32,000 nt of DNA from Moraxella nasovis (GTDB taxonomy: Bacteria > Pseudomonadota > Gammaproteobacteria > Pseudomonadales > Moraxellaceae). The stretch spans positions 1,290,001 to 1,322,000 of the forward strand of contig NZ_CP089976.1 in NCBI RefSeq assembly GCF_022701215.1, read 5' to 3'. The translations under genes were made by a program, and so were the position numbers. The notes under the pieces were generated by a model, which had not been told where the DNA came from, searched no databases, and was given only the letters and a program-made list of their open reading frames with translations. Below, piece by piece: positions 3,361 through 32,000 of the stretch (the stretch's first letter is position 1; each line of letters opens with the position of its first letter).

Positions 3361-3422
3361 TTTTCTTATTAATAGCTATGCAGGCTTTTTAAGCTTGGCA
3401 TAGTTTTAAAGAAATTATCATA

Positions 3423-3460
3423 AAAAAACCAGTAGTGCTATTGCATTATTGGTTTTTTTT
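3423..3460 (+). terminator. rplL-rpoB intergenic attenuator (rho-independent)
   Basis: 12-bp stem aaccagtagtgc/gcattattggtt (two G-U pairs), loop tatt, A run upstream and an 8-T run downstream. It occupies the same position as the partial terminator between rplL and rpoB in E. coli. Confidence 0.65.
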
Positions 3461-3817
3461 GTTATAATTAATTACTTGACCTTTTGTGATTTGCCTGCAC
3501 GGGCGGACAAACACACTTCAAAAAGGACAAATTTTCCCTATGCAGACAGACTTGATATTCGCCAATGCTCACTAAGCTAGATACCTTTGGTGTTTGGCCT
3601 TTTGTCATGCATTGGTTTTTTACATGATGTAATAGGGACATCGTGCTGAAAATTATCCATTTTATCGATGTATCACTGCAAAGGGGGCGAGTTCCCGCCT
3701 GAATTGGTTCCAATTCGGCTCGCATGGCATATTGTAAGTTTTAATCAGTCGGAAAAATGAGTATTTGTTGGCAAATCAGCAGACAAATTGTTTTCCAATT
3801 TAACGTAAGGAATCTTA

Positions 3818-7909: not shown

Positions 7910-7988
7910 TCGGTAAGGCTGTGGCTTACGGCTTGGGTGGATAAAGCTGCCCAAGCACAACTTATGACGAATACAACGGAGAATTCTT

Positions 7989-15948: not shown

Positions 15949-17022
15949 TTAGGTTAAAAGGCGATACTCGGTGGGGTCTTTTTTGGTAATAGGGTAATTA
16001 TCAAAAAATGCCGCCGCGACACGGTTTTTGGCATCAAGCCAGCCATCAAACTGTAAGCAGGTGCTGTGTAAGTCGCCACGCCACTTCGGGATTTTTGCTT
16101 TCATGCGACTAAAGCGTGACTGTGATAGGCTTGGCAGGGTTTTGGCAAATGCGATAGCTTTTAGGGCGTCATCTCGACTGTTACACACAAGAGCCATGTC
16201 GCAGCCAGCATGAATGGCAGCTTGAACACGTTGCTCCACGCCCCCTGCCACATGAGCAGCTTTCATAGATAAATCATCTGAGAAAATGACGCCATTAAAA
16301 CCTAGTTTTTGTCTTAAGATGTCTTGTAGCCATACTGATGAGAACCCTGCAGGTTTGTCATCTACTTTACTAAAAATCACGTGAGCAGGCATAATAGCGT
16401 CAAGCATGGCAAGGTTTTTCATAAAAGGCACACCATCAACTGCCCAAATCTCATCAAAACTTCTGTCATCTACAGCACAAGCAACATGAGAATCTGGTGC
16501 AACTGAGCCATGACCTGGAAAGTGTTTGCCTGTGGTTGCCATGCCCGCTTTATGCATGCCTGCCATAAGCTGTGCTGATAACGCGATAATTATGTCTGTT
16601 TGCTTATGAAATGCTCTATCGCCAATCACAGCACTTACGCCATCAATGTCTAGCACAGGTGCAAAGCTAAAATCGACACCAACTGCAAGCACTTCGCATG
16701 CCATTAGATAGCCAACATCATAAGCCAGACTTAGGGCAGATTTGGGGTTTTGGTCATATCGTTTACCAAGCTCCCCCATTGCTGGTAAGGGCGAAAAACC
16801 ACGGCGAAAACGTGCCACTCTTCCGCCTTCTTGATCAGCGGCGATAACTAAGTTTGGATTGATAGCACGAATACTATCTGTGAGTGCTCGGACACTGTTT
16901 GGCGTATCGACATTGCGTGCAAATAAAATGATGCCACCAAGTTCGTCGTTTTGCAAGAATTGTACGTCTTTGGAATTTAGTGTGCATCCTTCGACGTCCG
17001 CCATGATGATGCCAGTTGCCAT
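15949..17022 (-). CDS. nagZ: Beta-N-acetylhexosaminidase (GH3, peptidoglycan recycling)
   Basis: 357 aa. Matches E. coli NagZ blocks 'DQEGGRV.RF', 'FAPVLD', 'KHFPGHG', 'AIMPAHVI', 'GVIFSDDLSM'. Confidence 0.9.
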   Translation of the reverse strand: MATGIIMADVEGCTLNSKDVQFLQNDELGGIILFARNVDTPNSVRALTDSIRAINPNLVIAADQEGGRVARFRRGFSPLPAMGELGKRYDQNPKSALSLAYDVGYLMACEVLAVGVDFSFAPVLDIDGVSAVIGDRAFHKQTDIIIALSAQLMAGMHKAGMATTGKHFPGHGSVAPDSHVACAVDDRSFDEIWAVDGVPFMKNLAMLDAIMPAHVIFSKVDDKPAGFSSVWLQDILRQKLGFNGVIFSDDLSMKAAHVAGGVEQRVQAAIHAGCDMALVCNSRDDALKAIAFAKTLPSLSQSRFSRMKAKIPKWRGDLHSTCLQFDGWLDAKNRVAAAFFDNYPITKKDPTEYRLLT

Positions 17023-17265
17023 ATCTTGCCTTATGCATTTGATGAATGATTTGTGTTAAGTTTAGTGTAATATTATGCCATGAATTTGATGTTTGTAACA
17101 GTAGGCTTTAGCATTTGCAAAGAATTTTACGTTAAAAACCTGCAAAATCCATACCCTCCTGACCACCTATTCCAGTCTAAAATGGACACCAATTCCAATT
17201 TAAAATGACCAGTCATTCCGGTGAATGCTGGTCATTTTAGCTGAGTCTCGATGATTATTGTAGTG

Positions 17266-18006
17266 TTAATTTATTGTGTGCGCTAATTTCTTCCGCATAG
17301 ATTCGCCTGCCAGTGCAAGCGGGTATGCTCGGTGAATGATGCGATCAAGCACAGCGTCAGCAATGGTTGCTTCAGGAAATAGTCCATGCCAAGCTGCGAC
17401 AGGGTATTGGCTAGTAATCAGCAAACCGCCAACGCTGGATTGCTTATCAATAATATCAAGCAACACAGGACATATCTGCGGTAGTAATTCACCAATGCCA
17501 AAGTCATCAATGATTAACAAATCCACCTTGCAGTATTTTTGCTTAACCTTGGCGATACTGCCATCGGCTATTGATAAGATAATATCTTCGTATAAATCAG
17601 CAGCTTGAACAAACATCACTTTTCTTAAGTTGCGACAAGCGTAATTGCCGAGCGCACAAGCCAGCCAAGTCTTACCAGTTCCTGTCGCACCCGTAATAAT
17701 GACACTTCGATGCCTATCTATCCATTCGCATTCTAAAACTGGCGAGAGACTGTCTGGACTGAGACGCCTACTATTATAATCTATATCTTCAACTCTAGCT
17801 TTGCTATAGCGAAACTTGGCGTTTTTAATCAATTTATTGATGTGATTATTGTGCCGACCATTGATTTCATGTTCAAGCATACCTTCAATCAGCTTTGTTG
17901 TGCTTATCTGTGGATTGCTTGGTGCCAGATAATGCACCTCATAATAGTTGGCAGCATGGCTAAGTTTTAGTTGTTTGAGTTTTAGGATAATGGTATTAAT
18001 TGTCAT
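17266..18006 (-). CDS. istB: IS21-family helper ATPase IstB
   Basis: I call the start at the ATG at 18006 ('MTINTIILKLKQLKL'), preceded by AGGAG (18014-18018), 10 bp after the istA stop. Walker A 'GATGTGKTW', Walker B 'LLIIDDFG'. The longer ORF-track version (to 18102) overlaps istA and I reject it. Confidence 0.9.
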   Translation of the reverse strand: MTINTIILKLKQLKLSHAANYYEVHYLAPSNPQISTTKLIEGMLEHEINGRHNNHINKLIKNAKFRYSKARVEDIDYNSRRLSPDSLSPVLECEWIDRHRSVIITGATGTGKTWLACALGNYACRNLRKVMFVQAADLYEDIILSIADGSIAKVKQKYCKVDLLIIDDFGIGELLPQICPVLLDIIDKQSSVGGLLITSQYPVAAWHGLFPEATIADAVLDRIIHRAYPLALAGESMRKKLAHTIN

Positions 18007-18016
18007 GTTTAATCTC

Positions 18017-19609
18017 CTAGCTTGCAATTTGGTTGATTTCATTGGCGTAATAATTTGAGCCACGAATGTTTTCGTGCGGTTGGTTTGAGGTGAATACAAC
18101 ATCCAAATCTTCCATGCTTGGCATGATTAGATGCTCTGTCTTTTGGTAAATTTTATTTTTAAATACCGAAATGATGCGGTCAACTGCACAGATATTGAGT
18201 CTTTGCGCATAGTCAAAACCTTGCTCTATCTGCATATTCGGCACTTTATGCTCAAGCAAATATCGCTTTAACTGATTGAGCTTTTTAAGATTATTGGCAT
18301 AGCCGGATTTGTTTTGCATAATCTTTTGAACCATATGAGCGGTTTGTTTGCCAATATTTTGTGCCCAAGCCAGTAATTTATCTGGCTGCATTTCATCTTG
18401 CAGCTGATGATTTCTTGGCATATGCTCATGTAAAATGCTATTACCTGTGGTAATGTGTTGATGTTCAGCGATGAGTTCGCGGTGTAGATACACCAATACT
18501 TTGTTATCTGTGAGTTTGACATCTACACGCTGACCTATAAACTGATATGGGACAGAATAGCTGGCATGTTCTAAAGTAATCATATAAAACTCGGTAACTT
18601 TAAGATTATAGAACCATTGGCATATTTCATACGCCTTGGCAGGCAACGGATTTAAAAACTGCTCATCAGTCTTGCTAAAACAAACATATCGACTCTCTGG
18701 GTAGCGTTTTGTTGTTTTGGTATTTAATTTGCAAAGCTCTTGTGAGAGTGTATGGTTTAGTTCATCCAAACTAAAAAACCGATGATTTCTTAATTTAGCC
18801 AAAATACCCATCTGAACAATTCGCACCGCCAGTTCTGCCATTGATTTGTCTTTTGGCTTGCGAGGTCGTGAGGGTGTAATAATAATGTCATAGTGATCTG
18901 CAAGTTCGCTATATGAGGGATTGATTTGAATATCTGTTGAATTGTGGCTAATCACTGCAGATTTTAAGTTGTCTGTGACCAGCTTGAGTGGCACACCACC
19001 AAAATACTCAAACATACGGATATGGCATAGCTGCCAGTCTTGTGCCTTTTGAGATGAGACGGCGGTACAATAGATATACCCAGATGCAGGCAGTATGGCA
19101 ACAAAAATCTCAGCTTCAACAATTACTGTGCCTGTGCGCTCATTATAAATAGGCACTTTGCGACCACAGAAGTCCACTTGCACCATTTCGCCAGCCTTAT
19201 AGATCTGTCGCTTACTCGGGCGGGAGGTTTTCTTGTATTTACGATATTGTTCACAAAACTGTGAATAGCCAATGCCGTCAGGATGTGTCTCCCTGAACTC
19301 TTGCCAAAGCAATTCAAGTGTCATGTCAGGGCGCGACATCTCTTTATCAATGTATGCCCAATCAGGATGTGTTTTGATGGATTTGATTTTGTGTGGGTTA
19401 TATACCTTGACCAAGCCCAAAAGCCTTCGCATTTCAACATCGTTTGTTGCTAGTATTTCATCAATACCAAGCATGCAGTTTTGATTGAGCTTGCGTATTT
19501 TGGCGACTGTGGTGGGTGAGATGCTTAGATGGCGAGCGATGGCTCGGTTGCTTACGCCCTGATCGATTTGCTTTAGTGCAGCACGGATGGTTTTATTATC
19601 TATGTTCAT
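18017..19609 (-). CDS. istA: IS21-family transposase IstA
   Basis: 530 aa. N-terminal HTH ('GVSNRAIARHLSISPTTVAKI') followed by a DDE integrase-like core ('QVDF...', 'LVTDNLKSAV'). Classical partner of IstB. Confidence 0.9.
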   Translation of the reverse strand: MNIDNKTIRAALKQIDQGVSNRAIARHLSISPTTVAKIRKLNQNCMLGIDEILATNDVEMRRLLGLVKVYNPHKIKSIKTHPDWAYIDKEMSRPDMTLELLWQEFRETHPDGIGYSQFCEQYRKYKKTSRPSKRQIYKAGEMVQVDFCGRKVPIYNERTGTVIVEAEIFVAILPASGYIYCTAVSSQKAQDWQLCHIRMFEYFGGVPLKLVTDNLKSAVISHNSTDIQINPSYSELADHYDIIITPSRPRKPKDKSMAELAVRIVQMGILAKLRNHRFFSLDELNHTLSQELCKLNTKTTKRYPESRYVCFSKTDEQFLNPLPAKAYEICQWFYNLKVTEFYMITLEHASYSVPYQFIGQRVDVKLTDNKVLVYLHRELIAEHQHITTGNSILHEHMPRNHQLQDEMQPDKLLAWAQNIGKQTAHMVQKIMQNKSGYANNLKKLNQLKRYLLEHKVPNMQIEQGFDYAQRLNICAVDRIISVFKNKIYQKTEHLIMPSMEDLDVVFTSNQPHENIRGSNYYANEINQIAS

Positions 19610-19854
19610 GAGAAATCCTCAATATATTTTATAATTAAAATTCTTTTTTGAGGATTGCAAAGCCCTATAGCACTTGACAAATCAAGTACCAGCAGGGATA
19701 ATAAGATGTCGGGTTTGGTTAACGACATCTTTATCGAAGCACTATCAATTGGCGTTGATAGTGCTTTTTCATTGCAATCGTATTATTATTGGCATCTGTA
19801 TTAGCTAAGGCCAGTGCATTATCCACTCCTTAATATTGTTTTAGTTGGTAAAAT

Positions 19855-19886
19855 CAGTAAAAAAGACACGCAAAAAAGCGTGTCTT
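19855..19886 (-). terminator. Rho-independent terminator of the 70-aa RHH gene
   Basis: Perfect 9-bp stem aagacacgc/gcgtgtctt with a 6-nt loop. On the - strand it is followed by TTTTTTACTG. It lies 4 bp after the stop of ORF 19890..20102. Confidence 0.7.
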
Positions 19887-19889
19887 GGT

Positions 19890-20102
19890 TTATAAAGACA
19901 AGTGTTGTATTGATGCACCCAGCTGGGTGTCACAAACTGTTTTTGTGGTCTCGCGACGTTTTTTCTCTTCATTGATAAGTTTGGAGATAAAGCCTGAGAG
20001 CGACTGAAAATCCTGTGACGCTTGCTGTCTAGCCCATTCTTTAAGATCGTTGGGTAGTTTCACATTGGTTTGAGAAATATGATTTCTGTGTTGAGCAGGC
20101 AT
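19890..20102 (-). CDS. Small ribbon-helix-helix (Arc/CopG-like) DNA-binding protein
   Basis: 70 aa. 'TNVKLPNDLKEWARQQASQDFQSLSGFISKLINEE' fits the RHH pattern (beta strand, helix, helix). It has its own terminator and is divergent from a second RHH gene. Confidence 0.55.
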   Translation of the reverse strand: MPAQHRNHISQTNVKLPNDLKEWARQQASQDFQSLSGFISKLINEEKKRRETTKTVCDTQLGASIQHLSL

Positions 20103-20179
20103 TTTACACCATCCTTATAAAATAAAATTAAGTTTAGCATTAAAATAATCACAAATAAATTTAAAGCCAAATACTTTAT

Positions 20180-20302
20180 GTACCATTATATACTATTATA
20201 AATGTTAAATATACCATATTATACCAAATAATCGACCAAAAAGTGCACAATGTATCCCTTGCCAATTAAAAAACCCATGATTTTTCTATATAATACCGAA
20301 TA
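20180..20302. promoter_or_regulatory. Divergent promoter/operator region with four (A/G)TACC(A/G)WAT repeats
   Basis: GTACCATTAT (20180), ATACCATATT (20211), ATACCAAATA (20221) and ATACCGAATA (20293). The last abuts/overlaps a TATAAT at 20289-20294, 44 bp upstream of the 20338 ATG. Short repeats near helical phase are typical of RHH operators. Confidence 0.35.
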
Positions 20303-20337
20303 ACAACCAAATCGCATTACCCACGGAGTTACTCATT

Positions 20338-21297
20338 ATGGCTGGAGATATCCAAGTTAATTTGCGCATCCCGCCTGACCTTAAACAAAAGCTGCTGGAG
20401 CAAGCACAGTTTCATGGTCGTTCTTTAAATCTTGAAATGAACTATCGCTTGGTCAACTCATTCTCCACACCCAATGACAGCTATGCAGACATCATGCAAA
20501 AGCTAGATGAGATTGTTGCTCGCCATCATAAAACCAGGCGATTGAGTGCGGTTCAAGAACGATTAAACACAGCCTTATTTGAATTGAGCAAGGTGCCAAT
20601 GGTACGACAGCTATCGCCTGCGCGTATCGCTTATGATTTGGGTTATGAAAGAGCTGATGAAGTGATTCGTTGGTTTGATGGTGATCTTGAGCCAACTTTT
20701 ATACAGCTTAAACAACTGGCGGACTATCTAGGATGTGATGCCGAATGGCTAATGTTTGATGAAAAACAGCCTTATCCAATCAAAAACCAAGACATGAGCC
20801 GTTTTGATACCGTCCAGTCTATTGTGGAGTTTTGTTTTGAGCCGGAAGCGGGGTTTGATGCAGTTCAAAAGGTATTTTTTATTCGAAATGACAGTACTGC
20901 TGGTGATGTATTGATCATCAAGCAGTTTAGTCACAAGCATGCCCAGGTGTACACTACCAATATTCATCTTAGCAATGTGGTTGGTGCTACAGGTGCTAGA
21001 ATACAAGCTTTGTTTGTGTTGGCACTCAAAGATATTTGTAAACACGGTGAGTATAAACACCAAACCATGAGCTACTTATTTGACGCAGCTGTCTGTGAAC
21101 AGCTAAAACAAGGTATAGAGCATCCACTTAAGCTGACTGCACGAGCAGCCTTTACTCCCTGGATGGATGACATCTGGGATCGGTACATGTATGAAAAACA
21201 AGATGCAAATTACTACTGGCACGGCTATCGGGATGTCTGCTTTAGAGTGCAGGCATATATCAATGAAGATCCCAAGCTAAGAGACATGTATCCCTAA
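20338..21297 (+). CDS. Arc-type RHH + XRE-type HTH + unknown C-terminal domain protein
   Basis: 319 aa. Residues ~5-42, 'IQVNLRIPPDLKQKLLEQAQFHGRSLNLEMNYRLVNSF', match the Arc-like RHH pattern. Residues ~90-142, 'LSPARIAYDLGYERADEVIRWFDGDLEPTFIQLKQLADYLGCDAEWLMFDE', match the Cro/C1 HTH pattern. I do not recognise the remaining ~175 aa. GGAG RBS. Confidence 0.6.
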   Translation: MAGDIQVNLRIPPDLKQKLLEQAQFHGRSLNLEMNYRLVNSFSTPNDSYADIMQKLDEIVARHHKTRRLSAVQERLNTALFELSKVPMVRQLSPARIAYDLGYERADEVIRWFDGDLEPTFIQLKQLADYLGCDAEWLMFDEKQPYPIKNQDMSRFDTVQSIVEFCFEPEAGFDAVQKVFFIRNDSTAGDVLIIKQFSHKHAQVYTTNIHLSNVVGATGARIQALFVLALKDICKHGEYKHQTMSYLFDAAVCEQLKQGIEHPLKLTARAAFTPWMDDIWDRYMYEKQDANYYWHGYRDVCFRVQAYINEDPKLRDMYP

Positions 21298-21491: not shown

Positions 21492-21704
21492 TCAGGGGTA
21501 ATGAGAGTTTGAAGTGGGTAGGGGTGCAATACGCCAGTGAAATGGTTTAGATTGGTGGTGCGCTGTGCACACCCTACTGTACTGATGGGCGATCTGTTCA
21601 GGGGTATTGGCATAAGCTGAACAGCATAAAGTCAAAGAGACGGCTAGTGCCAATCGTGTTGGTAAGGATGCAATGCTGTAAGATGCGTGGTTGGTGTGAG
21701 TCAT
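21492..21704 (-). CDS. Hypothetical small exported protein (weak call)
   Basis: 70 aa with a signal-peptide-like segment 'LPTRLALAVSLTLCCSAYA'. No recognisable family and no strong RBS. Confidence 0.25.
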   Translation of the reverse strand: MTHTNHASYSIASLPTRLALAVSLTLCCSAYANTPEQIAHQYSRVCTAHHQSKPFHWRIAPLPTSNSHYP

Positions 21705-21771
21705 GGCGTATCTCTTTTTTGGGTTTGGAGGTAGGGTTAGCCTTTAAGGGTTTAGCAAATCAAAATCAAAC

Positions 21772-21830
21772 AATTCAATGGGTTATGCCATAAATGCTGG
21801 GTTACGCTGTCGCTAACCCAGCCTACGGGC
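21772..21830. repeat. Cassette-junction element, copy 3 (downstream of cdiI-3)
   Basis: AATTCAATGG-N10-AAATGCTGGGTTACGCTGTCGCTAACCCAGCCTACGGGC. It contains a perfect 9-bp inverted repeat GCTGGGTTA/TAACCCAGC. It lies 30 bp beyond the cdiI-3 stop. Confidence 0.8.
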
Positions 21831-21860
21831 TTCTCAGGTTGCGATTGGAAAATAATATAT

Positions 21861-22553
21861 TCAATGACTTGCACCACTATCACTAGCCTGGTCGATTGGA
21901 CTAAATATATTTTTCACGCCATAGTTCTCCATATGCAATATTATATCAATAATCAAATCTCTATCAATGTTGATCTTGTTAAAATTTAACCATTGTAATT
22001 CTATTTTGGAAAAATCTATATGCTTATAATAACCCCCTGAAATAATATCAAAAAACCCATCTAAATCAGAACCCAGATAACCACCAACCCCCAAAAAGGC
22101 CTCACTTAATGAACATAAAAAATCCCATTGATTATTTATATATTGACAATCTACAACAATACTCTTTTGGAGTGGAATATCTTTATTCAAGGAATAAAGA
22201 TAGGAAAATCTGAGCCATTTTTGCTTATATGCATTAGACATGTATACCCAATGGAGTTTGTTAATATTACTATTAATAATGTTTTTTATCCAGAGTATCT
22301 CAAGCCAAGTGAACTCATCTTGGAAACTATAATCGGTAATATAAAAGCAATTATTATTAAAATAATAATCATAAATAAATAGTGAGAAATAACTAACACT
22401 ACCAACGATTTCAAGTTTATAAAAATCACTGTTTAAGTAATCAATATTAACTGTAGTTTTTTCAATTTCTATTAATAGTGTGTTGCCATTAATTTGTATG
22501 TTTCTGATAGGAGTTTTAAATTCAGATTTATTACTAAGTAATTTTAAGTACAT
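21861..22553 (-). CDS. cdiI: Orphan CdiI-3 immunity protein with C-terminal barstar-like domain
   Basis: 230 aa, starting 2 nt after the CT3 stop. 'GYLGSDLDGFFDIISG' aligns with the barstar signature 'YYGENLDALWDCLTG' (Y29, D35 and D39 equivalents conserved). I do not recognise the first ~135 aa. Very AT-rich. Confidence 0.7.
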   Translation of the reverse strand: MYLKLLSNKSEFKTPIRNIQINGNTLLIEIEKTTVNIDYLNSDFYKLEIVGSVSYFSLFIYDYYFNNNCFYITDYSFQDEFTWLEILWIKNIINSNINKLHWVYMSNAYKQKWLRFSYLYSLNKDIPLQKSIVVDCQYINNQWDFLCSLSEAFLGVGGYLGSDLDGFFDIISGGYYKHIDFSKIELQWLNFNKINIDRDLIIDIILHMENYGVKNIFSPIDQASDSGASH

Positions 22554-22555
22554 AT

Positions 22556-23637
22556 CTATCTCACTGGTTTGGTCAACACTCCACCATCAGGATACCAAGG
22601 AGCAGGGAAAGGTCGTATATTATTGTAGTTATGATCAATAACATATCCCATCCTTCCATTGGGCATTTTTAATATTCTATGATGCCTACCCTCAGAGTTT
22701 GGAACCAACCATTCAGTTGCACCTTTCCAATTTGGATTCTCCCTTCCTTGATAAATTTTTTGTATGCCATTTCTATCAAGATTAGGAGTTCCTTTACCAG
22801 ATATCACATCCTCATATGCAGACCTTAAACCTTTTATATGAATCGGGTTTGGTGATGATAATTTTGGAGAGCTTGCATTATTTGATTTCGCAGTTGTAGC
22901 GTGCCCAGTGGTTTTAACACTTGCGTGATTACCACCCCTAACCGACTGTCTCGAAACCGCATTATAAGCTTCTACAGCAGAACCTGCAATTTGATGACCT
23001 GCAACAGTTACAGCAGCCATTGCTCCATGAGTATAAGTAATAAGCGAGCTTTCCAATTGATATAAATACTCAGGAGTACCCGCATATTCAATCATATACC
23101 GATATTTTTGAGATCTCAAATGATTACGACAGGCATTATCTTTACACTGGCGATTATAATGCTCAATAATTTTTGTAACGCCTTTTTCCCACTCGGCTAT
23201 TTCTTGAGAAGTCATGCCAGCATGTTCATAGCTGATATATTTCCATTGATGTATGATTGAATTACAAGCCGCAGAAGGTTCAGGGGAGCAAAATTTAGTG
23301 TATTGTAGGTGAAAGCTTTCTATGTCAACAGGTTTTAATAAAGCATTATTCTCCACCGCCTCCCCGGCACTGCCTACTGCCGTATCCACATCAAACCCAT
23401 ACAGCAGAGCTACAGAGCCTGCGGTGAGGCGGGCGGTGTTTAGGATTTTGTTGTATTCATCAGATCCTGGGCTGATTTCTCCTGAGTTGATTTTATCTTG
23501 GATGTCATCATCAATCATCCAATCACCCACCATCTCACCGATGATAGCACCGACAGCCGCCGCCTCGCAAGACTGGTCTTTGGCTTTGGCGGAGAGGCAG
23601 CCTGTTAAGCCTGCGGCAAGTTTGTGAGAGAGGTTGT
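22556..23637 (-). CDS. cdiA: Orphan cdiA-CT fragment 3: pre-toxin/VENN stub + barnase-like RNase toxin
   Basis: The frame is open from just after a TAG at ~23638-23640 and there is no credible start. 'HKLAAGLTGCLSAKAKDQSCEAAAVGAIIGEMVGDWM' is shared with the main cdiA. VENN is at 23345-23356. The C-terminus 'ATEWLVPNSEGRHHRILKMPNGRMGYVIDHNY' aligns with barnase E73, R83, R87 and D101-H102. Confidence 0.8.
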
Positions 23638-23661
23638 TGGTATTTACCTAAGAAACTAGCA

Positions 23662-23719
23662 AATTCAAAGATTGGCGATAAAAATGCTAGGTTTCACTTC
23701 CTCAACTCAGCCTACGAGC
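23662..23719. repeat. Cassette-junction element, copy 2 (diverged; downstream of cdiI-2)
   Basis: AATTCAAAGA-N9-AAATGCTAGGTTTCACTTCCTCAACTCAGCCTACGAGC. It is colinear with copies 1 and 3, but the inverted repeat is degraded. It lies 18 bp beyond the cdiI-2 stop. Confidence 0.65.
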
Positions 23720-23737
23720 TATTTTGTCTTGGTTGAT

Positions 23738-24058
23738 TTAGTAAAAAATCTCTCTAATTCTGTCTACTTCAACATCTTGACGATAGATGTCTAAAATGAT
23801 ATTTTTTTGATCTTCTGTATAAAATTTTTCATTGGTATTTGCTTGATTTTTTAATGCAAACAATATATTTAAAATTTCATAATCAAAAGAATGCATATTT
23901 ATTATGTAAGGCACATACAATTTTAAAATATCGAATGACTGTTGAGGATTTAATATTTTTATGTTTTTATCTATAAAGTCACACAAATACCACTCATCAA
24001 CAATATTGTTATTTTTAACATCTTTTAGCAAATTATCAAGATTTTTGAAAAAACTCAT
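23738..24058 (-). CDS. cdiI: Orphan CdiI-2 immunity protein (family not recognised)
   Basis: 106-aa soluble protein with no TM segments. It starts 4 nt after the CT2 stop and is very AT-rich. The call rests on position. Confidence 0.6.
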   Translation of the reverse strand: MSFFKNLDNLLKDVKNNNIVDEWYLCDFIDKNIKILNPQQSFDILKLYVPYIINMHSFDYEILNILFALKNQANTNEKFYTEDQKNIILDIYRQDVEVDRIREIFY

Positions 24059-24062
24059 ATTC

Positions 24063-26915
24063 TTAATCCTTAAACTTAAAATCTATTTTTAGACCAGTAT
24101 TAACATTTTCGACGTAATGTATTTCTACACCATTAACATTCTGGGCTTTTTTGACCCATCCATCTTTGGCATATAAACCATTTTTTGCGTCTGACATTTT
24201 GATAGGTAACTTTCTACCCTTTGGATTGCCCCTCACCTCCTCCATTGCTAATTGCTCAGTCAAATTTCTAGGCGTAGTTCTTCCTGTTGATATTAAAGAG
24301 TAGTCAATCATTTTGACTTGAGATGTTGGTTTTCCTACCTCTATATCTCCAACTTTGCTAGATGTTTTTGGCAAAATTCTATTAACTTTAGTGATTTTTC
24401 CAACGGGTATAATTTCAACAACATGGGTTGGAACGACCATCATATTGATGGCATATACAACAGCTGCGACTGATTTGCGCACCTTTTGCATTTCAGTATC
24501 AGTGGCTTGATTTGCCCAGGTTGCTAAAGAATTATCAAGATTATCCAAATATCTTTGAGTAAGTTCTATATTGCCTTTACTGTACGCATCTTGCATTAAC
24601 TCCAGCAGGTTTCGTTCTTGCGGTCTAATATCTACACTACTCTTTGCTTTTTCAAACTCTCTGACTAGCTCTCCAATCTCTCCTGGTGCTAGACCCACAA
24701 TGCTATTATTCTCCACCGCCACCCCAGCTTCATTCGCTGCGGTATCCACATCAAAATCATAGAGTAGGGCGAAGCTGCCTGCGGCAAGTTTGGCGGTGTT
24801 TAGGATTTTATTATAATCTGGTGTGCCTGGGCTGATGTCTCCTGAGTTGATTTTAGCTTGGATGTCATCATCAATCATCCAATCACCCACCATTTCACCG
24901 ATGATAGCACCGATGGCGGCAGATTCGCAAGATTCGTCTTTTGCTTTGGCGGAGAGGCAGCCTGTTAAGCCTGCGGCAAGTTTATGAGCGACATTAGTGA
25001 TAAACTCTGTATCATTGAAGTCCAGTGGTTTAACACCATGAGTATAAATACCAGCTGCTGCGGCATCCACCAGTTGATTGGTCAGATGTCTTTTTAGGGA
25101 CTCTTCTAGGCTTTCGCCATAGATTAAGCTATCCGTCAGAGCATGACCTGCACCTTGTACAAAGGCACGAGTGAATTTATCACCGATGGTGGCAGTGGTC
25201 GAGGTATCTACTTGCAGAGTCTGAGCTAAGAATTTGTCCAGACTGGCAGTTGCCCCAGCTGTCAGCACGGCTCTTGCCATGTTTTTGGCAGTTTGTGATT
25301 TACCTAGGTCTTTGAGTGTTTTATTGACATCGCCTTTGTTATTGACTAGGGTGGTACCTGCTTGGGTGACTAAGGAGGTGAAGGCAGCATTTGCCATTGC
25401 TGCTGTCGCAGAACCTGCTGTGACAGATACGCCCATCGAGCTTAGCACAGACACACCGCCACCAGCCGTTGCCATCGATAAAGCAATCGCCAGTAGCGCT
25501 GCTCCTGCTGGGGAGAGTCCTTCTTGTTTGTAATCCCATTCTTCCTGGGCAAGTCTGATGGCGGTGAAATCCACATCATCACGCTGGATGATGTCACTTA
25601 GGTAGTCAAAGCCTGGGTTGTGGCTTAGTCGTGTCAGGACATTGACCAGATGATCTTTATCGGCTAGGTCATCTTTGTTGATGGGTACTTGTACAGCCAG
25701 ACCGCCTGTGGCATTGAGAGTGGGGGTAACGCCAATGAATGAGGGTAGCTTGGCATCTTCATTGATATAACCCGACTCTGAAATGGACTGCCAGACTAGG
25801 TTTTCAAATTGGCGAGATTGACTGACGCTGACGGTTGTGCTGATGGTGTCTAGGATGATCCTAGCATCAGCCACTGCTTTATCACCCACACCCGCCGTGA
25901 CGCTCGCCCCTTGTAGATTGGCAAAGCGAGTGCCTTGTAGCTGGGTATTGCCTCCTGACTCACTTTGACTATAGTTAGCAATCAGGCTGGTTGGCAGCTC
26001 GCTGATGATTTGCTTGCTGTCTTTGGTATTGACTTTTCTATATTTGATGCCAGCAAAGCTAGAAGTCGTTTTAGACTCCACTTCTTTGACATCCACTTCC
26101 TGTACAGCATAAAGACCCAAAGCTTCGCCAGCCTTAAGCTGAATTTGACCTGCTGGTGCATTAAATTCAGTAGCATAGGCATATAGATTATCATTCGCCT
26201 GCACTGAGATGGCATTGGCGTTTAGCTTGACTGCCTCGCTATCGGCGATTTGCTCTGTGGTAGTTGTGACAGTAATTTTCTTTTTGGCACCACCCCAGCT
26301 TTTTTTCTTGAAAGTGTTGGTTTCTCTATCATAGATACTGTCTTGACCAGCTTGTAGAATGGTACTGCCAGCACTTTGGATGGTAATGCCAGCATCGCCT
26401 GCTTGATAAGTGCCGCCTATCAGTAAGATGTTACTGTCTGATGCTGGCTGTGCCGAAACAGTGCCTGCTTGGGGATTGCTAATGGCTTGGATGACAATAC
26501 CATCTTTGGCCGTGATGGTGCTTGGCTGATAATTTTTATGCAATGCATAAGCATCATCTTCAAATTCACCACGCTCATAGACATCGTGCAAACCCTCAAT
26601 GCTAATAGCAATATCGATGTTTTGGACAGGTGGTATTTGTGACAATAACCGCTTAAACCCCGTCAATTTATCAGTGTCACCACCTAAGGCGGCTGCATAG
26701 GTGCTTTTGAGCTTGGCTTTATGCTCGTCAAGTTTGGTATCGCTATCAAAAGCAGCCTCATCAAAGACAAGCTTGTCAATGATGGCGTTGGCTGTTTGTG
26801 TATCTGTATTGTCAGTTTTCTTGCCAAGTAGCGGAAAAGGCATTGAAGCCACCGCCAGCCGTAATGTTAGCCGCTTTAAATCAAAAAGCAACAAAAAGCA
26901 GTGGAAAATCCACAA
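24063..26915 (-). CDS. cdiA: 5'-truncated orphan cdiA copy (duplicated cdiA body + PT-VENN + CT2 toxin)
   Basis: 950-aa ORF. Residues from 'PLLGKKTDNTD' to 'LSAKAKD' are identical to the main CdiA. VENN is at 24705-24716. CT2 (213 aa) differs from CT1 and CT3. The first 26 codons (26837-26915, TTG 'start', no RBS) are unrelated sequence. There is no signal or TPS domain, so it cannot be an independent secreted CdiA. Confidence 0.85.
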   Translation of the reverse strand: MWIFHCFLLLFDLKRLTLRLAVASMPFPLLGKKTDNTDTQTANAIIDKLVFDEAAFDSDTKLDEHKAKLKSTYAAALGGDTDKLTGFKRLLSQIPPVQNIDIAISIEGLHDVYERGEFEDDAYALHKNYQPSTITAKDGIVIQAISNPQAGTVSAQPASDSNILLIGGTYQAGDAGITIQSAGSTILQAGQDSIYDRETNTFKKKSWGGAKKKITVTTTTEQIADSEAVKLNANAISVQANDNLYAYATEFNAPAGQIQLKAGEALGLYAVQEVDVKEVESKTTSSFAGIKYRKVNTKDSKQIISELPTSLIANYSQSESGGNTQLQGTRFANLQGASVTAGVGDKAVADARIILDTISTTVSVSQSRQFENLVWQSISESGYINEDAKLPSFIGVTPTLNATGGLAVQVPINKDDLADKDHLVNVLTRLSHNPGFDYLSDIIQRDDVDFTAIRLAQEEWDYKQEGLSPAGAALLAIALSMATAGGGVSVLSSMGVSVTAGSATAAMANAAFTSLVTQAGTTLVNNKGDVNKTLKDLGKSQTAKNMARAVLTAGATASLDKFLAQTLQVDTSTTATIGDKFTRAFVQGAGHALTDSLIYGESLEESLKRHLTNQLVDAAAAGIYTHGVKPLDFNDTEFITNVAHKLAAGLTGCLSAKAKDESCESAAIGAIIGEMVGDWMIDDDIQAKINSGDISPGTPDYNKILNTAKLAAGSFALLYDFDVDTAANEAGVAVENNSIVGLAPGEIGELVREFEKAKSSVDIRPQERNLLELMQDAYSKGNIELTQRYLDNLDNSLATWANQATDTEMQKVRKSVAAVVYAINMMVVPTHVVEIIPVGKITKVNRILPKTSSKVGDIEVGKPTSQVKMIDYSLISTGRTTPRNLTEQLAMEEVRGNPKGRKLPIKMSDAKNGLYAKDGWVKKAQNVNGVEIHYVENVNTGLKIDFKFKD
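24943..26836. repeat. 1.9-kb direct repeat, copy A
   Basis: Matches 29049-30942 at a constant offset of 4106 bp. Every line I compared is identical except 25032 (A) versus 29138 (G). Confidence 0.9.
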
Positions 26916-27099
26916 GGGTAGCCGTGATGGTAAGCCCTACAAGCCAAAGCCACCAACACCCAAGTCTAAAGCACAGCTTGAGAACATGAACAAAGAAACC
27001 ATGAAAGCGTATGAGCAATACGCCAAAAAACTGCCAGCTGGTACGGTCAAAAATGCCGTTAAAGAACTGGTTAATCACAACCAAGATAAGGGGCGATGA
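26836..27099 (+). pseudogene. 3' remnant of an unidentified + strand gene (Lys/Pro-rich C-terminus)
   Basis: Protein-like translation on the + strand, 'GIEATASRNVSRFKSKSNKKQWKIHKGSRDGKPYKPKPPTPKSKAQLENMNKETMKAYEQYAKKLPAGTVKNAVKELVNHNQDKGR*'. It begins exactly at the repeat breakpoint. The upstream part of ORF 26701..27099 is merely antisense to cdiA. Confidence 0.3.
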
Positions 27100-27171
27100 T
27101 GAGGTAGTCATCCTGTGAGGGCGGTAGCAAGATTGCAATAGAGATCGTTAGGCTTTCTTGAAATACCTGAA

Positions 27172-27228
27172 AATTCAATAGTTATCTCAAAATGCTGGGT
27201 TACGCTATCGCTAACCCAGCCTATGGGC
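27172..27228. repeat. Cassette-junction element, copy 1 (downstream of cdiI-1)
   Basis: AATTCAATAG-N7-AAAATGCTGGGTTACGCTATCGCTAACCCAGCCTATGGGC, with the same 9-bp inverted repeat as copy 3. It ends 2 nt from the cdiI-1 stop codon. Confidence 0.8.
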
Positions 27229-27230
27229 TA

Positions 27231-27971
27231 TTATGCAAACAATATAAACAATACAAATATAACACACCCACAAATAAACAATAATAATTTTATATATTTT
27301 CTGAGCACAGGATGTACAAAATTATTATTTTTACCTTTTATATTATTTTTATAAAACAAAAACATCAACATTGCCAATATGTATGATGCAAAGTTTAATA
27401 AGTATTGATACCTACTTTGATGAGTGGCTTTAAGTTCTATATTTAGATAATCAAGTGTATATTCCAAGATGAACAAGAGGGTTATTGCGACAAAACAGTA
27501 AAAAATTCTTTTACAATCATTTAAATATTTTCCCAAGTAGCCTACAAAAAATGGGAAAAGTACAATCGGTATTAAAGAATGAAACAAATTGCCTACAATA
27601 AAACCTCTAGAAAATTCATAGAATTGCTTGCCATGTGATAGGTCATAAAAAATAAATTTTCTAGAGAAAAAAAGTATCGTCAAAAATAATATAAAAACTA
27701 GATTGAGTTTTATTTGAATAATAAAATCAATTGTAATTGCAGAACATACAAATACCAAAAAGAAACCAAGAAATATCAAAGCATATCGATGCTCTTCAAA
27801 ATAGCTTGGAAAAATAACAATATTGATAACAAAGATTAGCCATGAAAATAAAAATACAATGGCTGTGCTGACAAAATATCCGCCAAAATCTTTTGAACAA
27901 TGTAGCAGTTTATTGCCCAAATGAGACAATTTGGTATCTAAAACTTCTCCATCTCTCGTACTCATCGGCAT
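27231..27971 (-). CDS. cdiI: CdiI-1: polytopic (~7 TM) membrane immunity protein
   Basis: 246 aa. The ATG at 27971 overlaps the cdiA stop by 10 nt (ATGCCGATGA; a second ATG forms an ATGA overlap). I read about seven hydrophobic helices by eye. Extremely AT-rich. The call rests on position and coupling. Confidence 0.65.
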   Translation of the reverse strand: MPMSTRDGEVLDTKLSHLGNKLLHCSKDFGGYFVSTAIVFLFSWLIFVINIVIFPSYFEEHRYALIFLGFFLVFVCSAITIDFIIQIKLNLVFILFLTILFFSRKFIFYDLSHGKQFYEFSRGFIVGNLFHSLIPIVLFPFFVGYLGKYLNDCKRIFYCFVAITLLFILEYTLDYLNIELKATHQSRYQYLLNFASYILAMLMFLFYKNNIKGKNNNFVHPVLRKYIKLLLFICGCVIFVLFILFA

Positions 27972-30900
27972 ACCCCATTGATATAACTATAGCCCATCAT
28001 TGAACAACCATAGCGTATCCTGTCTTGTAGATTTAGCATATCCACTTTGCCAGATCCAGTTCCTATCAGACTGGGTGGCAATGTAAATATTACTGAGCCA
28101 CCAATATGTTTCTCGTGTATAGGTTGTAGTATTGTTTGTTCTTGAACTAAGCGGTTAATATCCCATTGTCTATAATTGGTTACTTTGCCATCCCATAGCT
28201 TTTTAAAATCATTATATCCATCAGCCATCAATGCTTGCCCAGCCTCTCGTCGCCAGTCAGTCCCGCTGGTACGCCAAGAAAAAGAGGAGCCTGTTAAAAA
28301 TGTGATATTTGAATGCAAGGGAATTGTTCCAAAAATATAACACCCTGAAGCACCTAAGCCAGTTAAACATCTTCTTGATACATCGCTAGCACCAGCAAAC
28401 CATCTAGTTTGCGGAAAATGTTTTGACATAACATCAAAAAAATCAGCTCTGCTTTCTATAGTGTTGATATTATTGAACACATTTTGATTGCTAAATATTT
28501 GTTGTAAAACCACATTTCTGCTTCTTATCATGTCGTTACTTAGATTGTTTTTTATTATTTCATTGTTATAAGTCTCACTTATCAATGACTTTAAAGGAGA
28601 AGAATCCCCATTATAATTTAATGACAATCTAATTAAATTAGCACATGCACTACCATTGGCATTTAATGAGCACTCTTTGATCATAAGATCATCATATTTT
28701 TGGGAATGCTTAATATATTGATTAACAATAGATTGTTCACAACTACTATTGCTCTTGCATTTCTTAAACTTATCAACAAAATCCGACAATAAACTTTCAG
28801 ACAGAGCATTCCACCTCGCCGCCACCCCAGCTTCATTTGCTGCGGTATCCACATCAAAGTCATACAGTAGGGCGAAGCCACCTGCGGCAAGTTTTGCGGT
28901 GTTTAGGATTTTTTGTTTATCTTCATCACTTAGGATAAGGGCTTTTTCACCATCAGGTAGGGTAACTTCATGTTTATTAGTCATCCAATCACCCACCATC
29001 TCGCCTATGATAGCACCGACAGCCGCCGCCTCGCAAGACTGGTCTTTGGCTTTGGCGGAGAGGCAGCCTGTTAAGCCTGCGGCAAGTTTATGAGCGACAT
29101 TAGTGATAAACTCTGTATCATTGAAGTCCAGTGGTTTGACACCATGAGTATAAATACCAGCTGCTGCGGCATCCACCAGTTGATTGGTCAGATGTCTTTT
29201 TAGGGACTCTTCTAGGCTTTCGCCATAGATTAAGCTATCCGTCAGAGCATGACCTGCACCTTGTACAAAGGCACGAGTGAATTTATCACCGATGGTGGCA
29301 GTGGTCGAGGTATCTACTTGCAGAGTCTGAGCTAAGAATTTGTCCAGACTGGCAGTTGCCCCAGCTGTCAGCACGGCTCTTGCCATGTTTTTGGCAGTTT
29401 GTGATTTACCTAGGTCTTTGAGTGTTTTATTGACATCGCCTTTGTTATTGACTAGGGTGGTACCTGCTTGGGTGACTAAGGAGGTGAAGGCAGCATTTGC
29501 CATTGCTGCTGTCGCAGAACCTGCTGTGACAGATACGCCCATCGAGCTTAGCACAGACACACCGCCACCAGCCGTTGCCATCGATAAAGCAATCGCCAGT
29601 AGCGCTGCTCCTGCTGGGGAGAGTCCTTCTTGTTTGTAATCCCATTCTTCCTGGGCAAGTCTGATGGCGGTGAAATCCACATCATCACGCTGGATGATGT
29701 CACTTAGGTAGTCAAAGCCTGGGTTGTGGCTTAGTCGTGTCAGGACATTGACCAGATGATCTTTATCGGCTAGGTCATCTTTGTTGATGGGTACTTGTAC
29801 AGCCAGACCGCCTGTGGCATTGAGAGTGGGGGTAACGCCAATGAATGAGGGTAGCTTGGCATCTTCATTGATATAACCCGACTCTGAAATGGACTGCCAG
29901 ACTAGGTTTTCAAATTGGCGAGATTGACTGACGCTGACGGTTGTGCTGATGGTGTCTAGGATGATCCTAGCATCAGCCACTGCTTTATCACCCACACCCG
30001 CCGTGACGCTCGCCCCTTGTAGATTGGCAAAGCGAGTGCCTTGTAGCTGGGTATTGCCTCCTGACTCACTTTGACTATAGTTAGCAATCAGGCTGGTTGG
30101 CAGCTCGCTGATGATTTGCTTGCTGTCTTTGGTATTGACTTTTCTATATTTGATGCCAGCAAAGCTAGAAGTCGTTTTAGACTCCACTTCTTTGACATCC
30201 ACTTCCTGTACAGCATAAAGACCCAAAGCTTCGCCAGCCTTAAGCTGAATTTGACCTGCTGGTGCATTAAATTCAGTAGCATAGGCATATAGATTATCAT
30301 TCGCCTGCACTGAGATGGCATTGGCGTTTAGCTTGACTGCCTCGCTATCGGCGATTTGCTCTGTGGTAGTTGTGACAGTAATTTTCTTTTTGGCACCACC
30401 CCAGCTTTTTTTCTTGAAAGTGTTGGTTTCTCTATCATAGATACTGTCTTGACCAGCTTGTAGAATGGTACTGCCAGCACTTTGGATGGTAATGCCAGCA
30501 TCGCCTGCTTGATAAGTGCCGCCTATCAGTAAGATGTTACTGTCTGATGCTGGCTGTGCCGAAACAGTGCCTGCTTGGGGATTGCTAATGGCTTGGATGA
30601 CAATACCATCTTTGGCCGTGATGGTGCTTGGCTGATAATTTTTATGCAATGCATAAGCATCATCTTCAAATTCACCACGCTCATAGACATCGTGCAAACC
30701 CTCAATGCTAATAGCAATATCGATGTTTTGGACAGGTGGTATTTGTGACAATAACCGCTTAAACCCCGTCAATTTATCAGTGTCACCACCTAAGGCGGCT
30801 GCATAGGTGCTTTTGAGCTTGGCTTTATGCTCGTCAAGTTTGGTATCGCTATCAAAAGCAGCCTCATCAAAGACAAGCTTGTCAATGATGGCGTTGGCTG

Positions 30901-32000
30901 TTTGTGTATCTGTATTGTCAGTTTTCTTGCCAAGTAGCGGAAGAAATAGGGCGGTGCGACTTGCCTCATCGATCACTTGCCGTGTTTGCCCTTGGGAGCC
31001 AAGGGCTGCCATCTGTACTTTGCCATTATCCGCTTGTAAATTTGCCATTTGCACAGCAATACCACCAGCACTGATTAGGCGAATGTCGCCATCGCTAGTG
31101 GTAAGGCTTGCCCCTGCATTTTCTACACCTGTAAATTCGGTATTGGCAATCTTAAGAGATTTATTAAGCTTGGTAATTTCTTGAGCCAGTTCATCAGGCT
31201 TGAATTTGATATTCAGCTCTTGACGGCGAACCAGTTCGTCTTGTATGCTCTTAGCAAGCTGCTGATTCAGCGCTTCTTTTTGCTCTTCATAGTCAGCGAC
31301 AGGGCTTTGTGCATTTTTATCTTCCAAATCACCCAGTTTGTCAGTTGCCTCTTTGTGACTTGCCAATGCCTGTTGATAGACCATATCACGATTTAGTGTG
31401 TCAATTTGATTTTGAAGTGTTTCGATCTCACCCTCAAGTAATTTAATACGGTCATCATCTTTAATGCCTGATACCGAATTGCTAATAGCACCAATATATA
31501 GATTGCCTTGGGTCGCAGTGGCTTTAATACCACTACCAGCTTGAATTTGACTGCCGCCAATATCAACACCAGCACCCTTAAGATGCACCACACCCTCAGT
31601 GGTGATGGTTACTTTGCTTTCAGTCCCGCGTCCTTTATCACCTGATTGTGATGCTAAAGTTAAACCACCCTGACTTGCAAGCTCTACACCGCCAATGGCA
31701 GTAATGGTTTTGCCTGCCTCGACTGTGATGTCATCATGGCTTTTAATGGCAAGCACACCATTGGCTGCTGCTAATTGTGGATTATGAGCAAGAACATCAC
31801 TTTTATGAGTGGTTAAAGTAGCATTTTGCCAATCTACACCGCCTGCCTGACTGTGTAGAGCAATGCTGCCAGCTTGTAGCGTGCTTGTGCCAAGACGAAC
31901 ATCCTGATTGGCATAGACAGAAGCTAAGCCTTGTGCCTTGATGTCAGCATCTTCGAGTATGACCTGATTTTCACGACTGCTGATGGCAAGGTGTGTATTT
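27962..32000 (-). CDS. cdiA: CdiA contact-dependent inhibition exoprotein (3' part; 5' end off window) carrying CT1
   Basis: I translated the frame by hand and it stays open from 31757 to 32000, so the GTG at 31756 is internal. It has FHA-type Gly-rich beta-helix repeats, then the body shared with orphan 2, then the pre-toxin region 'GAIIGEMVGDWM...DFDVDTAANEAGVA'. A degenerate ARWN sits at 28808-28819 where VENN is expected. A 281-aa CT follows. Confidence 0.9.
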   Translation of the reverse strand, partial: NTHLAISSRENQVILEDADIKAQGLASVYANQDVRLGTSTLQAGSIALHSQAGGVDWQNATLTTHKSDVLAHNPQLAAANGVLAIKSHDDITVEAGKTITAIGGVELASQGGLTLASQSGDKGRGTESKVTITTEGVVHLKGAGVDIGGSQIQAGSGIKATATQGNLYIGAISNSVSGIKDDDRIKLLEGEIETLQNQIDTLNRDMVYQQALASHKEATDKLGDLEDKNAQSPVADYEEQKEALNQQLAKSIQDELVRRQELNIKFKPDELAQEITKLNKSLKIANTEFTGVENAGASLTTSDGDIRLISAGGIAVQMANLQADNGKVQMAALGSQGQTRQVIDEASRTALFLPLLGKKTDNTDTQTANAIIDKLVFDEAAFDSDTKLDEHKAKLKSTYAAALGGDTDKLTGFKRLLSQIPPVQNIDIAISIEGLHDVYERGEFEDDAYALHKNYQPSTITAKDGIVIQAISNPQAGTVSAQPASDSNILLIGGTYQAGDAGITIQSAGSTILQAGQDSIYDRETNTFKKKSWGGAKKKITVTTTTEQIADSEAVKLNANAISVQANDNLYAYATEFNAPAGQIQLKAGEALGLYAVQEVDVKEVESKTTSSFAGIKYRKVNTKDSKQIISELPTSLIANYSQSESGGNTQLQGTRFANLQGASVTAGVGDKAVADARIILDTISTTVSVSQSRQFENLVWQSISESGYINEDAKLPSFIGVTPTLNATGGLAVQVPINKDDLADKDHLVNVLTRLSHNPGFDYLSDIIQRDDVDFTAIRLAQEEWDYKQEGLSPAGAALLAIALSMATAGGGVSVLSSMGVSVTAGSATAAMANAAFTSLVTQAGTTLVNNKGDVNKTLKDLGKSQTAKNMARAVLTAGATASLDKFLAQTLQVDTSTTATIGDKFTRAFVQGAGHALTDSLIYGESLEESLKRHLTNQLVDAAAAGIYTHGVKPLDFNDTEFITNVAHKLAAGLTGCLSAKAKDQSCEAAAVGAIIGEMVGDWMTNKHEVTLPDGEKALILSDEDKQKILNTAKLAAGGFALLYDFDVDTAANEAGVAARWNALSESLLSDFVDKFKKCKSNSSCEQSIVNQYIKHSQKYDDLMIKECSLNANGSACANLIRLSLNYNGDSSPLKSLISETYNNEIIKNNLSNDMIRSRNVVLQQIFSNQNVFNNINTIESRADFFDVMSKHFPQTRWFAGASDVSRRCLTGLGASGCYIFGTIPLHSNITFLTGSSFSWRTSGTDWRREAGQALMADGYNDFKKLWDGKVTNYRQWDINRLVQEQTILQPIHEKHIGGSVIFTLPPSLIGTGSGKVDMLNLQDRIRYGCSMMGYSYINGVCR
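29049..30942. repeat. 1.9-kb direct repeat, copy B (inside the expressed cdiA)
   Basis: Partner of 24943-26836. The upstream edge is sharp (30942/30943). Four antisense ORF pairs in the supplied track are identical at offset 4106. Confidence 0.9.

Follow-up and report, generated by a model that had tools for sequence, protein, structure and literature searches.

Results

We analysed a 32,000-nucleotide stretch of Moraxella nasovis DNA (the window; all positions are counted from its first letter), which derives from a finished chromosome consisting of a single 2,028,236-bp contig. The window carries a cdi toxin locus in which a segment of 1.9 kb, here termed B, occurs twice as a direct repeat. 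Read along the minus strand, the locus consists of the main cdiA gene (an upstream part, U, followed by B) ending in the C-terminal toxin region CT1, then cdiI-1, a hairpin, a piece of junction DNA (J), the second copy of B joined to the toxin region CT2, cdiI-2, a CT3 stub, cdiI-3 and another hairpin (Table 1). The second copy of B is the homology arm of a long, 5′-truncated orphan cdiA-CT/cdiI module located downstream of cdiA.

The repeat and the long orphan module

A base-by-base comparison of the two copies of B, which are offset by 4106 bp, found 1893 of 1894 positions identical, the sole mismatch being an A at 25032 against a G at 29138. The original prediction had described both the near-identity and this substitution, and the exact self-comparison left one mismatch in total rather than the many more that would have spoken against it. 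Beyond the repeat, identity at the same offset is approximately 0.25, which is the level of chance. The high-coordinate edge is a sharp breakpoint (26836/26837 versus 30942/30943) with ~25% identity past it, and the low-coordinate edge runs into a patch of ~80% identity, followed by unrelated sequence; both edges had been anticipated in this form. All four flanks of the repeat are unique. B comprises 630-631 codons (PLLGKKTDNTD...LSAKAK) in the frame of both genes, close to the ~631 proposed earlier, and the copies share one codon phase. Open reading frames (ORFs) offset by exactly 4106 bp form at least five pairs, where four antisense pairs had been noted.

The prediction that the repeat places a second cdiA 3′ body in front of a second toxin was also borne out, as copy 2 is in frame with a VENN-delimited CT2 and is followed by a small candidate immunity gene. 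The long orphan is a 5′-truncated cdiA fragment whose homology to cdiA ends at 26836. It lies downstream of cdiA-CT1/cdiI-1 in the same (minus) orientation, its AVENN/VENN codons (24705-24716) divide the body from the variable toxin, and the small candidate immunity ORF comes directly after it. The sequence following VENN is unrelated to CT1 and differs among species, and the C-terminal domain of CT2 recurs in Rhs, HINT and FHA polymorphic toxins. Within the long orphan Pfam finds DUF637 and PT-VENN only, and neither a two-partner secretion (TPS) domain nor a signal sequence; because both are lacking, the product would have no export route via CdiB.

The ATG of the long orphan sits 7 nt into J, and a start at TTG 26915 would give a protein of 950 aa. 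The minus strand of J contains no sigma-70-like promoter, the Shine-Dalgarno sequence at the junction ATG is weak at best, and the hairpin upstream looks like a weak terminator. For these reasons the long orphan is probably silent, like other orphans.

Table 1. Features of the M. nasovis cdi locus (positions in the window).
Feature	Position	Strand	Basis or remark
Main cdiA, 3′ part, 1345 codons, ends in CT1	27962..32000	-	Frame open to window edge (31999); DUF637 and PT-VENN (Pfam)
Repeat copy 1 (segment B), inside main cdiA	29049..30942	-	Direct comparison; continuity across 30942 also in L006
Candidate cdiI-1, 246 aa, very hydrophobic, 27% GC	27231..27971	-	Overlaps cdiA stop by 10 nt
Conserved terminator-like hairpin directly after cdiI-1, 9+2-bp stem then AUUUU	27172..27229	-	Fold -20.8 kcal/mol
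Junction DNA J, remnant adjoining the truncated orphan end	26837..27100	+	Homologous to 92-aa (M. bovoculi)/117-aa (M. oculi) ORF
Long orphan cdiA-CT ORF, 926 aa from ATG (MPFPLLGKK)	24063..26843	-	DUF637, PT-VENN (PF04829), CT2 (Pfam)
Repeat copy 2 (segment B), body of long orphan	24943..26836	-	Direct comparison; 58-62 differences from M. bovoculi/M. oculi orphans
Diverged pre-toxin patch, ~80% between copies, 3′ bound of identical tract	24873..24942	-	Alignment
Candidate cdiI-2, 106 aa, 22% GC	23738..24058	-	Starts 4 nt past CT2 stop
Short orphan cdiA-CT3, ~270-300 nt of diverged pre-toxin homology plus VENN	22556..23642	-	ORFs, Pfam, alignment
cdiI-3, 230 aa, weak Barstar-like match	21861..22553	-	Same protein follows full-length CdiA in L002
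Second hairpin copy, end of cdi array after cdiI-3	21792..21831	-	Repeat-family comparison, motif scan, fold

The truncation junction in other Moraxella species

The interval between hairpin and orphan (26837-27171) is 335 bp long, and J is its first 264 bp. Read on its plus strand, J codes for 87 residues with 82% identity to the 92-aa ORF of Moraxella bovoculi and 80% identity to the 117-aa ORF of Moraxella oculi. Five assemblies, three of M. bovoculi and two of M. oculi, have this ORF within cdi orphan arrays, directly next to the 5′ end of a long orphan of 813-985 aa. Window positions 24881-27097, comprising B and J, are colinear across 26836/26837 with positions 8061-10277 of locus L007 and with loci L008, L009, L010 and L011. 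The junction itself, in which ...CCAAGTAGCGGAA is joined to AAGGCATTGAAGCC..., is identical in M. nasovis and all five of these loci, and repeat copy 1 aligns to them only as far as 30942.

In every lineage the homology of J stops at 27100. The neighbours beyond this point differ: M. nasovis has the hairpin and cdiI-1, M. bovoculi an SNase gene, and M. oculi a cdiI-3-like gene. At least three toxins are found behind the J-B unit: CT2, a Col/Pyo DNase type that follows AVQNN (L007), and a third type (L008, L009 and L011). Since M. nasovis, M. bovoculi and M. oculi have the junction and J in common, at a divergence of ~18% for J and ~3% for the body, the orphan is old. We conclude that the truncation producing the long orphan was a single old event whose product is common to the three species.

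In locus L010 (M. oculi) the long orphan is split into ORFs of 403 aa and 798 aa (8812-10023 and 6470-8866) with a PT-HINT-type C-terminus, which shows that decay of the J-B unit is possible in the absence of a partner gene. The M. bovoculi arrays carry the Lys-rich 92-aa ORF and then the SNase-family nuclease gene on the opposite strand (10001-10771 in L007, L008 and L009). M. nasovis retains only a remnant of the 92-aa ORF, and the M. oculi ORF is frameshifted to 117 aa. The 92-aa ORF is possibly a truncated relic itself, because its TTG start sits 16 nt inside the antisense of B.

A scan of the genome collection with B recovered a single locus, L006 (Moraxella sp. ATCC 23246), which is a frameshifted fragment with a different truncation point and which shows main-gene continuity across 30942. 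This long-class cdiA fragment (L006 9312-12111) is 82-87% identical over ~2.6 kb, has a 5′ truncation equivalent to window position 31468, and has a Fic-domain gene and a restriction-modification-like methylase/helicase pair as its neighbours on either side. In many strains of M. catarrhalis, pieces of it carry the annotation hypothetical protein (P0283-P0296). The main CdiA proteins of M. bovoculi and M. oculi (1723-1783 aa) are 36-43% identical to B at the protein level.

Divergence of B within and between genomes

Over 1890-1894 bases, B of M. nasovis is 96.7-96.9% identical to the M. bovoculi and M. oculi orphans. The divergence of B is therefore ~3% between species versus 0.05% between the M. 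nasovis copies, and synonymous divergence (dS) is 0.09-0.11 versus 0.002. J differs at 31 of 170 aligned sites (~18%) between M. nasovis and the other species. The mismatch at 25032 is synonymous, and because the orphan has A where every other sequence has G, the A is derived. In the orphan, the M. nasovis allele comes as close as 24 nt to the junction and ~10 nt to the 3′ edge, and the homogenised tract thus fills the whole high-homology block.

None of the six copies has a stop among the 630 codons of B, and the ratio of nonsynonymous to synonymous divergence (dN/dS) is 0.09-0.22, low even between the M. bovoculi and M. oculi orphans. B is also mosaic: a 474-nt stretch of L007 matches M. nasovis exactly, whereas L008 shows 10 differences there, and among the M. 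bovoculi sequences divergence is 2.6% in B against 0.6% in J. The low dN/dS and the open codons argue that the variation in orphan bodies arose in functional genes, under constraint at the protein level. We conclude that this variation mostly arose under such constraint and was then moved by recombination, the alternative being that the orphans are expressed themselves.

Import of the main-gene copy of B from the orphan was considered as well. A jump at 30942 in the identity between the main gene and the outgroup L006 would have suggested it, and there is none.

Predicted product of recombination between the copies

A crossover anywhere in B would delete exactly 4106 bp, namely CT1, cdiI-1, the hairpin and J. 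In a simulated deletion allele, cdiA-CT2 is in frame and open to the CT2 stop, with cdiI-2 as the next gene. By its geometry, the arrangement is a ready substrate for a reciprocal deletion crossover.

Main cdiA, CT1 and the hairpin element

The window holds only the 3′ part of the main cdiA, and its TPS-coding 5′ end and cdiB lie beyond the window. We conclude that this gene end is the 3′ part of a cdiA-type TPS toxin gene. In its pre-toxin motif, ARWNAL replaces VENN, and relatives of CT1 carry AVRWN(A/S)L. CT1 (toxin region 27962-28820) is Cys-rich, has no Pfam family and has 3 homologues among 5.8 billion proteins. Elsewhere CT1 was found only as orphans of 290-296 aa at the ends of orphan arrays in two other Moraxella, and J is absent from the flanks of these orphans. 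The CT1-like orphan in L005 is followed by a gene of 245 aa. The candidate cdiI-1 product is a multi-pass membrane protein, which hints that CT1 is an envelope-targeting toxin. Pfam assigned no significant family to CT1, CT2 or CT3 or to any of the three candidate immunity proteins, and exact-sequence look-ups of cdiI-1, cdiI-2 and a 319-aa neighbour found none on record.

The hairpin has the form GCTGGGTTA-N9-TAACCCAGC followed by AUUU and is located directly 3′ of several unrelated immunity genes. A motif scan gave two matches versus zero expected. A further copy is present in L002 (10723-10782), with weaker ones in L007 and L008. The hairpin may be a terminator that travels with the modules, or it may mark a module boundary.

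CT3 and the surroundings of the array

The CT3 orphan keeps, as predicted, just a short and diverged stretch upstream of VENN. In L002, a Logan assembly of a related Moraxella, CT3 ends a full-length CdiA of 3027 aa that is directly followed by an identical cdiI-3 protein; CT3 has thus been a main toxin elsewhere. The downstream genes of L002 are ~97% identical to the window, and its cdiA body is unrelated. Genes flanking the array are rplKAJL-rpoBC, serA, gor and nagZ, and an IS21-family element (istA, 530 aa, and istB; 17266-19609) follows ~2.2 kb past the last part of the array. An IS21 element occupies the matching relative position in L002 (12938-15281), so its insertion predates the divergence of the two loci.

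When positions 21700-32000 were compared with plasmids by megablast, only the pre-toxin/CT3 region matched, in M. bovis plasmids. One M. bovis plasmid (L001, NZ_CP087852.1) carries a 4,081-bp direct repeat of 100% identity (3038-7118 and 17019-21099), which spans the 5′ parts of two filamentous-haemagglutinin/cdiA-type genes and ~110 bp upstream of them. These genes are a further homogenised pair of cdiA paralogues in Moraxella, here at the N-terminal end. A ShlB/CdiB-type transporter gene is located at the far, downstream end of the array in L005 (12919-14835), from a Moraxella metagenome-assembled genome, and in L010 (1103-3055), where it is on the strand opposite to the cdi genes.

Discussion

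Together, the comparisons make it likely that the long orphan is an old truncated module that has recently undergone homologous exchange with cdiA, which would account for the 99.95% identity and leave a ready substrate for deletion. The breakpoint is common to other lineages and divergence within the genome is far below that between lineages; copies that go back to one junction event are 50-100 times closer within than between genomes, which requires later homogenisation. We propose that a RecA-type homologous exchange (gene conversion) between the main gene and the orphan recently equalised B. Such an exchange would have covered the whole block of high homology and halted at heterology, where U faces J on the 5′ side and at the 80% patch on the 3′ side, and the one synonymous change would have arisen in the orphan afterwards. 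The homogenised tract spans the whole block of homology, so that its ends coincide with heterology, and only one genome holds both partners. More cautiously worded, the pattern supports a recent homologous exchange, in either direction. The original prediction had left the choice between a very recent duplication and ongoing gene conversion. The former is contradicted by the junction and J shared with M. bovoculi and M. oculi, at ~18% divergence for J and ~3% for the body, and the latter is favoured by the hierarchy of divergence, in the form of a recent exchange.

A fresh duplication would nonetheless explain several features at once. In such a scheme, a resident cdiA-CT2 very recently took up a 4106-bp circle or fragment (B-CT1-cdiI-1-hairpin-J), through one crossover or through homology-facilitated illegitimate recombination, so that repeat and breakpoint were made together. 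The repeat period is as long as the unit, the breakpoint on the 5′ side is sharp, and the copies stay identical up to the last base before it. However, the breakpoint and J recur in M. bovoculi and M. oculi, and with J at 18% and B at 3% divergence the junction is far older than the homogenisation. Because the junction recurs across species, we rejected both Campbell-type integration of a circle and homology-facilitated illegitimate recombination as its source, and a variant in which the donor fragment already had J joined to B demands that the right-hand crossover fall in the first 24 nt of homology. We regard a fresh duplication as distinctly unlikely. It is extremely improbable that the second copy, or its linkage to CT1 and CT2, was misassembled. 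Near-perfect repeats of 1.9 kb are hard to phase with short reads, but the 2.03-Mb genome is a single contig, the flanks are unique, and one substitution distinguishes the copies. In addition, both types of junction occur in other assemblies (the orphan type in five assemblies of two species, the main type in L006), and the sole alternative joining of the four junctions would be the deletion product plus a 4.1-kb circle.

Expression of the orphan has to be weighed in the same way. The orphan could be translated as an independent protein of 810-985 aa from the junction ATG and be selected for a function of its own, the identity to cdiA being incidental. This ATG is found 7 nt into J in all species and is used by gene callers, and the 630 open codons of the six copies, with their low dN/dS, persist even where no partner is nearby. 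Against this stand the lack of a sigma-70-like minus-strand promoter in J, the weak or absent Shine-Dalgarno sequence, the terminator-like hairpin upstream and the copy in L010, which is broken into two ORFs; the low dN/dS fits equally well with import of variation from functional alleles. We therefore consider an independent function unlikely. Very unlikely, in our estimation, is a dedicated device like pilE/pilS, in which selection for switching, rather than ordinary recombination with near-identity as its by-product, maintains the match. The J-B unit does carry at least three toxins in different genomes, and its body is intact across species. No specialised recombination element turned up, although no search was aimed at one, and the unit persists in M. 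bovoculi and M. oculi without a partner gene (within 10 kb). Furthermore, the frequency of exchange in Neisseria is very low (PMC3848433), and switching by deletion sacrifices cdiI-1 (PMC4927057). A broader proposal, that J-B is kept as a selectively maintained acceptor cassette resynchronised with the resident cdiA, or is translated from the junction ATG, seems doubtful to us. If true, Moraxella species would preserve a truncated cdiA body that is intact and able to recombine, and such an acceptor cassette would keep silent toxins deployable through repeated re-synchronisation of this body with whichever long-class cdiA is resident.

Several points weigh against an old orphan recently homogenised with cdiA. 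The comparison with relatives suggested by the original prediction was informative in part: it recovered the J-B body with other toxins in M. bovoculi and M. oculi, but no B-containing main cdiA within 10 kb of these orphans, the distance to which the check extended. Our analysis is based on a single M. nasovis genome, and between-strain variation of the copies and switched alleles are beyond its reach. A tract that extends to 24 nt from the heterology border is at the limit of simple strand invasion. Repeated unequal crossovers, or the joint import of both copies from an unsampled donor, are possible as well. J may be less constrained than B, in which case 18% versus 3% overstates the gap in age, the ratio to the dS of B being ~2-fold. 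Finally, CT2 has no full-length match, and a full-length CdiA ending in CT2 was not found.

The locus had been described as a pre-loaded toxin switch. The predicted 4106-bp deletion and in-frame cdiA-CT2 fusion hold as geometry, but the idea itself is already published (PMC3150448, PMC4927057, PMC6336857, PMC3967940) and the cost of losing cdiI-1 had been overlooked. Based on the literature, a recombinant without cdiI-1 would be exposed to CT1 from its parental siblings, and because of this sensitivity the switch would pay only in special circumstances. The locus is well suited to tests of toxin switching by recombination. It offers a simple experimental system in a naturally competent genus, in which PCR could detect the predicted 4106-bp deletion.

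Long orphans and deletion-type switching have both been published, and we describe no new mechanism and no new class of system. What our analysis adds is that the orphan is old and common to Moraxella species and that its perfect match to cdiA reflects recent homogenisation. The locus would be a clean natural case in which an old silent cassette and an expressed cdiA were homogenised over the full 1.9 kb, with the cassette dated by cross-species comparison as far older than the identity. At the sequence level it supports two ideas, that gene conversion renews the arms of orphans and that functional alleles are the source of the variation in orphan bodies. These ideas are relevant to a question debated in the literature, namely whether orphans form a 'fossil record' or a 'silent repository'.

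The closest precedents are the orphan cdiA-CT/cdiI modules (PMC3150448, PMC4927057). Like the M. nasovis long orphan, these are 5′-truncated, lie downstream of cdiA/cdiI in the same orientation, keep sequence upstream of VENN, and carry a different toxin with a small immunity ORF next to it. Their homology to the main gene ends at the pre-toxin/VENN region, and fusion by deletion has been proposed for them. Poole et al. (2011) reported orphan modules in Yersinia pseudotuberculosis that match over 2.6-3.6 kb, and showed that Y. pestis Microtus 91001 has naturally lost 3,557 bp, which joined an orphan to cdiA (PMC3150448). The M. nasovis module differs in its near-identical 1.9-kb arm, in a junction conserved in three Moraxella species, and in a main toxin with ARWNAL for VENN. 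Ruhe et al. (2016) and De Gregorio et al. (2019) put forward the 'silent repository' model, and noted that the deletion removes the resident cdiI, which leaves recombinants sensitive to parental siblings unless the locus is first duplicated (PMC4927057, PMC6336857).

Similarly, the tpsC cassettes of Neisseria meningitidis are silent and 5′-truncated, have pre-VENN sequence in common with the expressed gene, and have immunity ORFs between them. An exchange at the 3′ end, by gene conversion or recombination, has been inferred for them, and both hosts are naturally transformable. The cassettes encode 260-893 residues, and recombination with tpsA is real but rare (Arenas et al. 2013; PMC3848433). 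They belong to another genus and CdiA lineage, and recombination there was demonstrated by experiment, whereas the evidence for homogenisation in M. nasovis comes from sequence. A HMMER search with U and B against 1.84 billion representatives also returned many 5′-truncated DUF637/PT-VENN proteins of 350-830 aa with varied start positions, some of which may be contig-end fragments; among them, P0173 is an 828-aa DUF637 protein of N. meningitidis and a truncated relative of the query. The lengths of the tpsC cassettes and of these relatives run counter to the earlier premise that orphans retain just a small piece of the sequence upstream of VENN.

In the Moraxellaceae, the type-II orphan cdi segments of Acinetobacter offer a further parallel. 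That work discusses stepwise 5′-to-3′ displacement and reprogramming by homologous recombination with loss of immunity; it differs in reporting neither a cross-species truncation junction nor a homogenised 1.9-kb arm (PMC6336857). An analogous event was demonstrated for Rhs in Salmonella Typhimurium LT2 (Koskiniemi et al. 2014; PMC3967940). There, as in M. nasovis, a silent toxin fragment lies downstream and recombination in the shared core would give an expressed fusion, although delivery is by Rhs and T6SS (a type VI secretion system) rather than by TPS. According to the part of the discussion in PMC4927057 that treats it, the Rhs work supports duplication of the locus before recombination, so that parental immunity is retained. 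In Salmonella the fusion gave evolved clones an advantage (PMC3967940).

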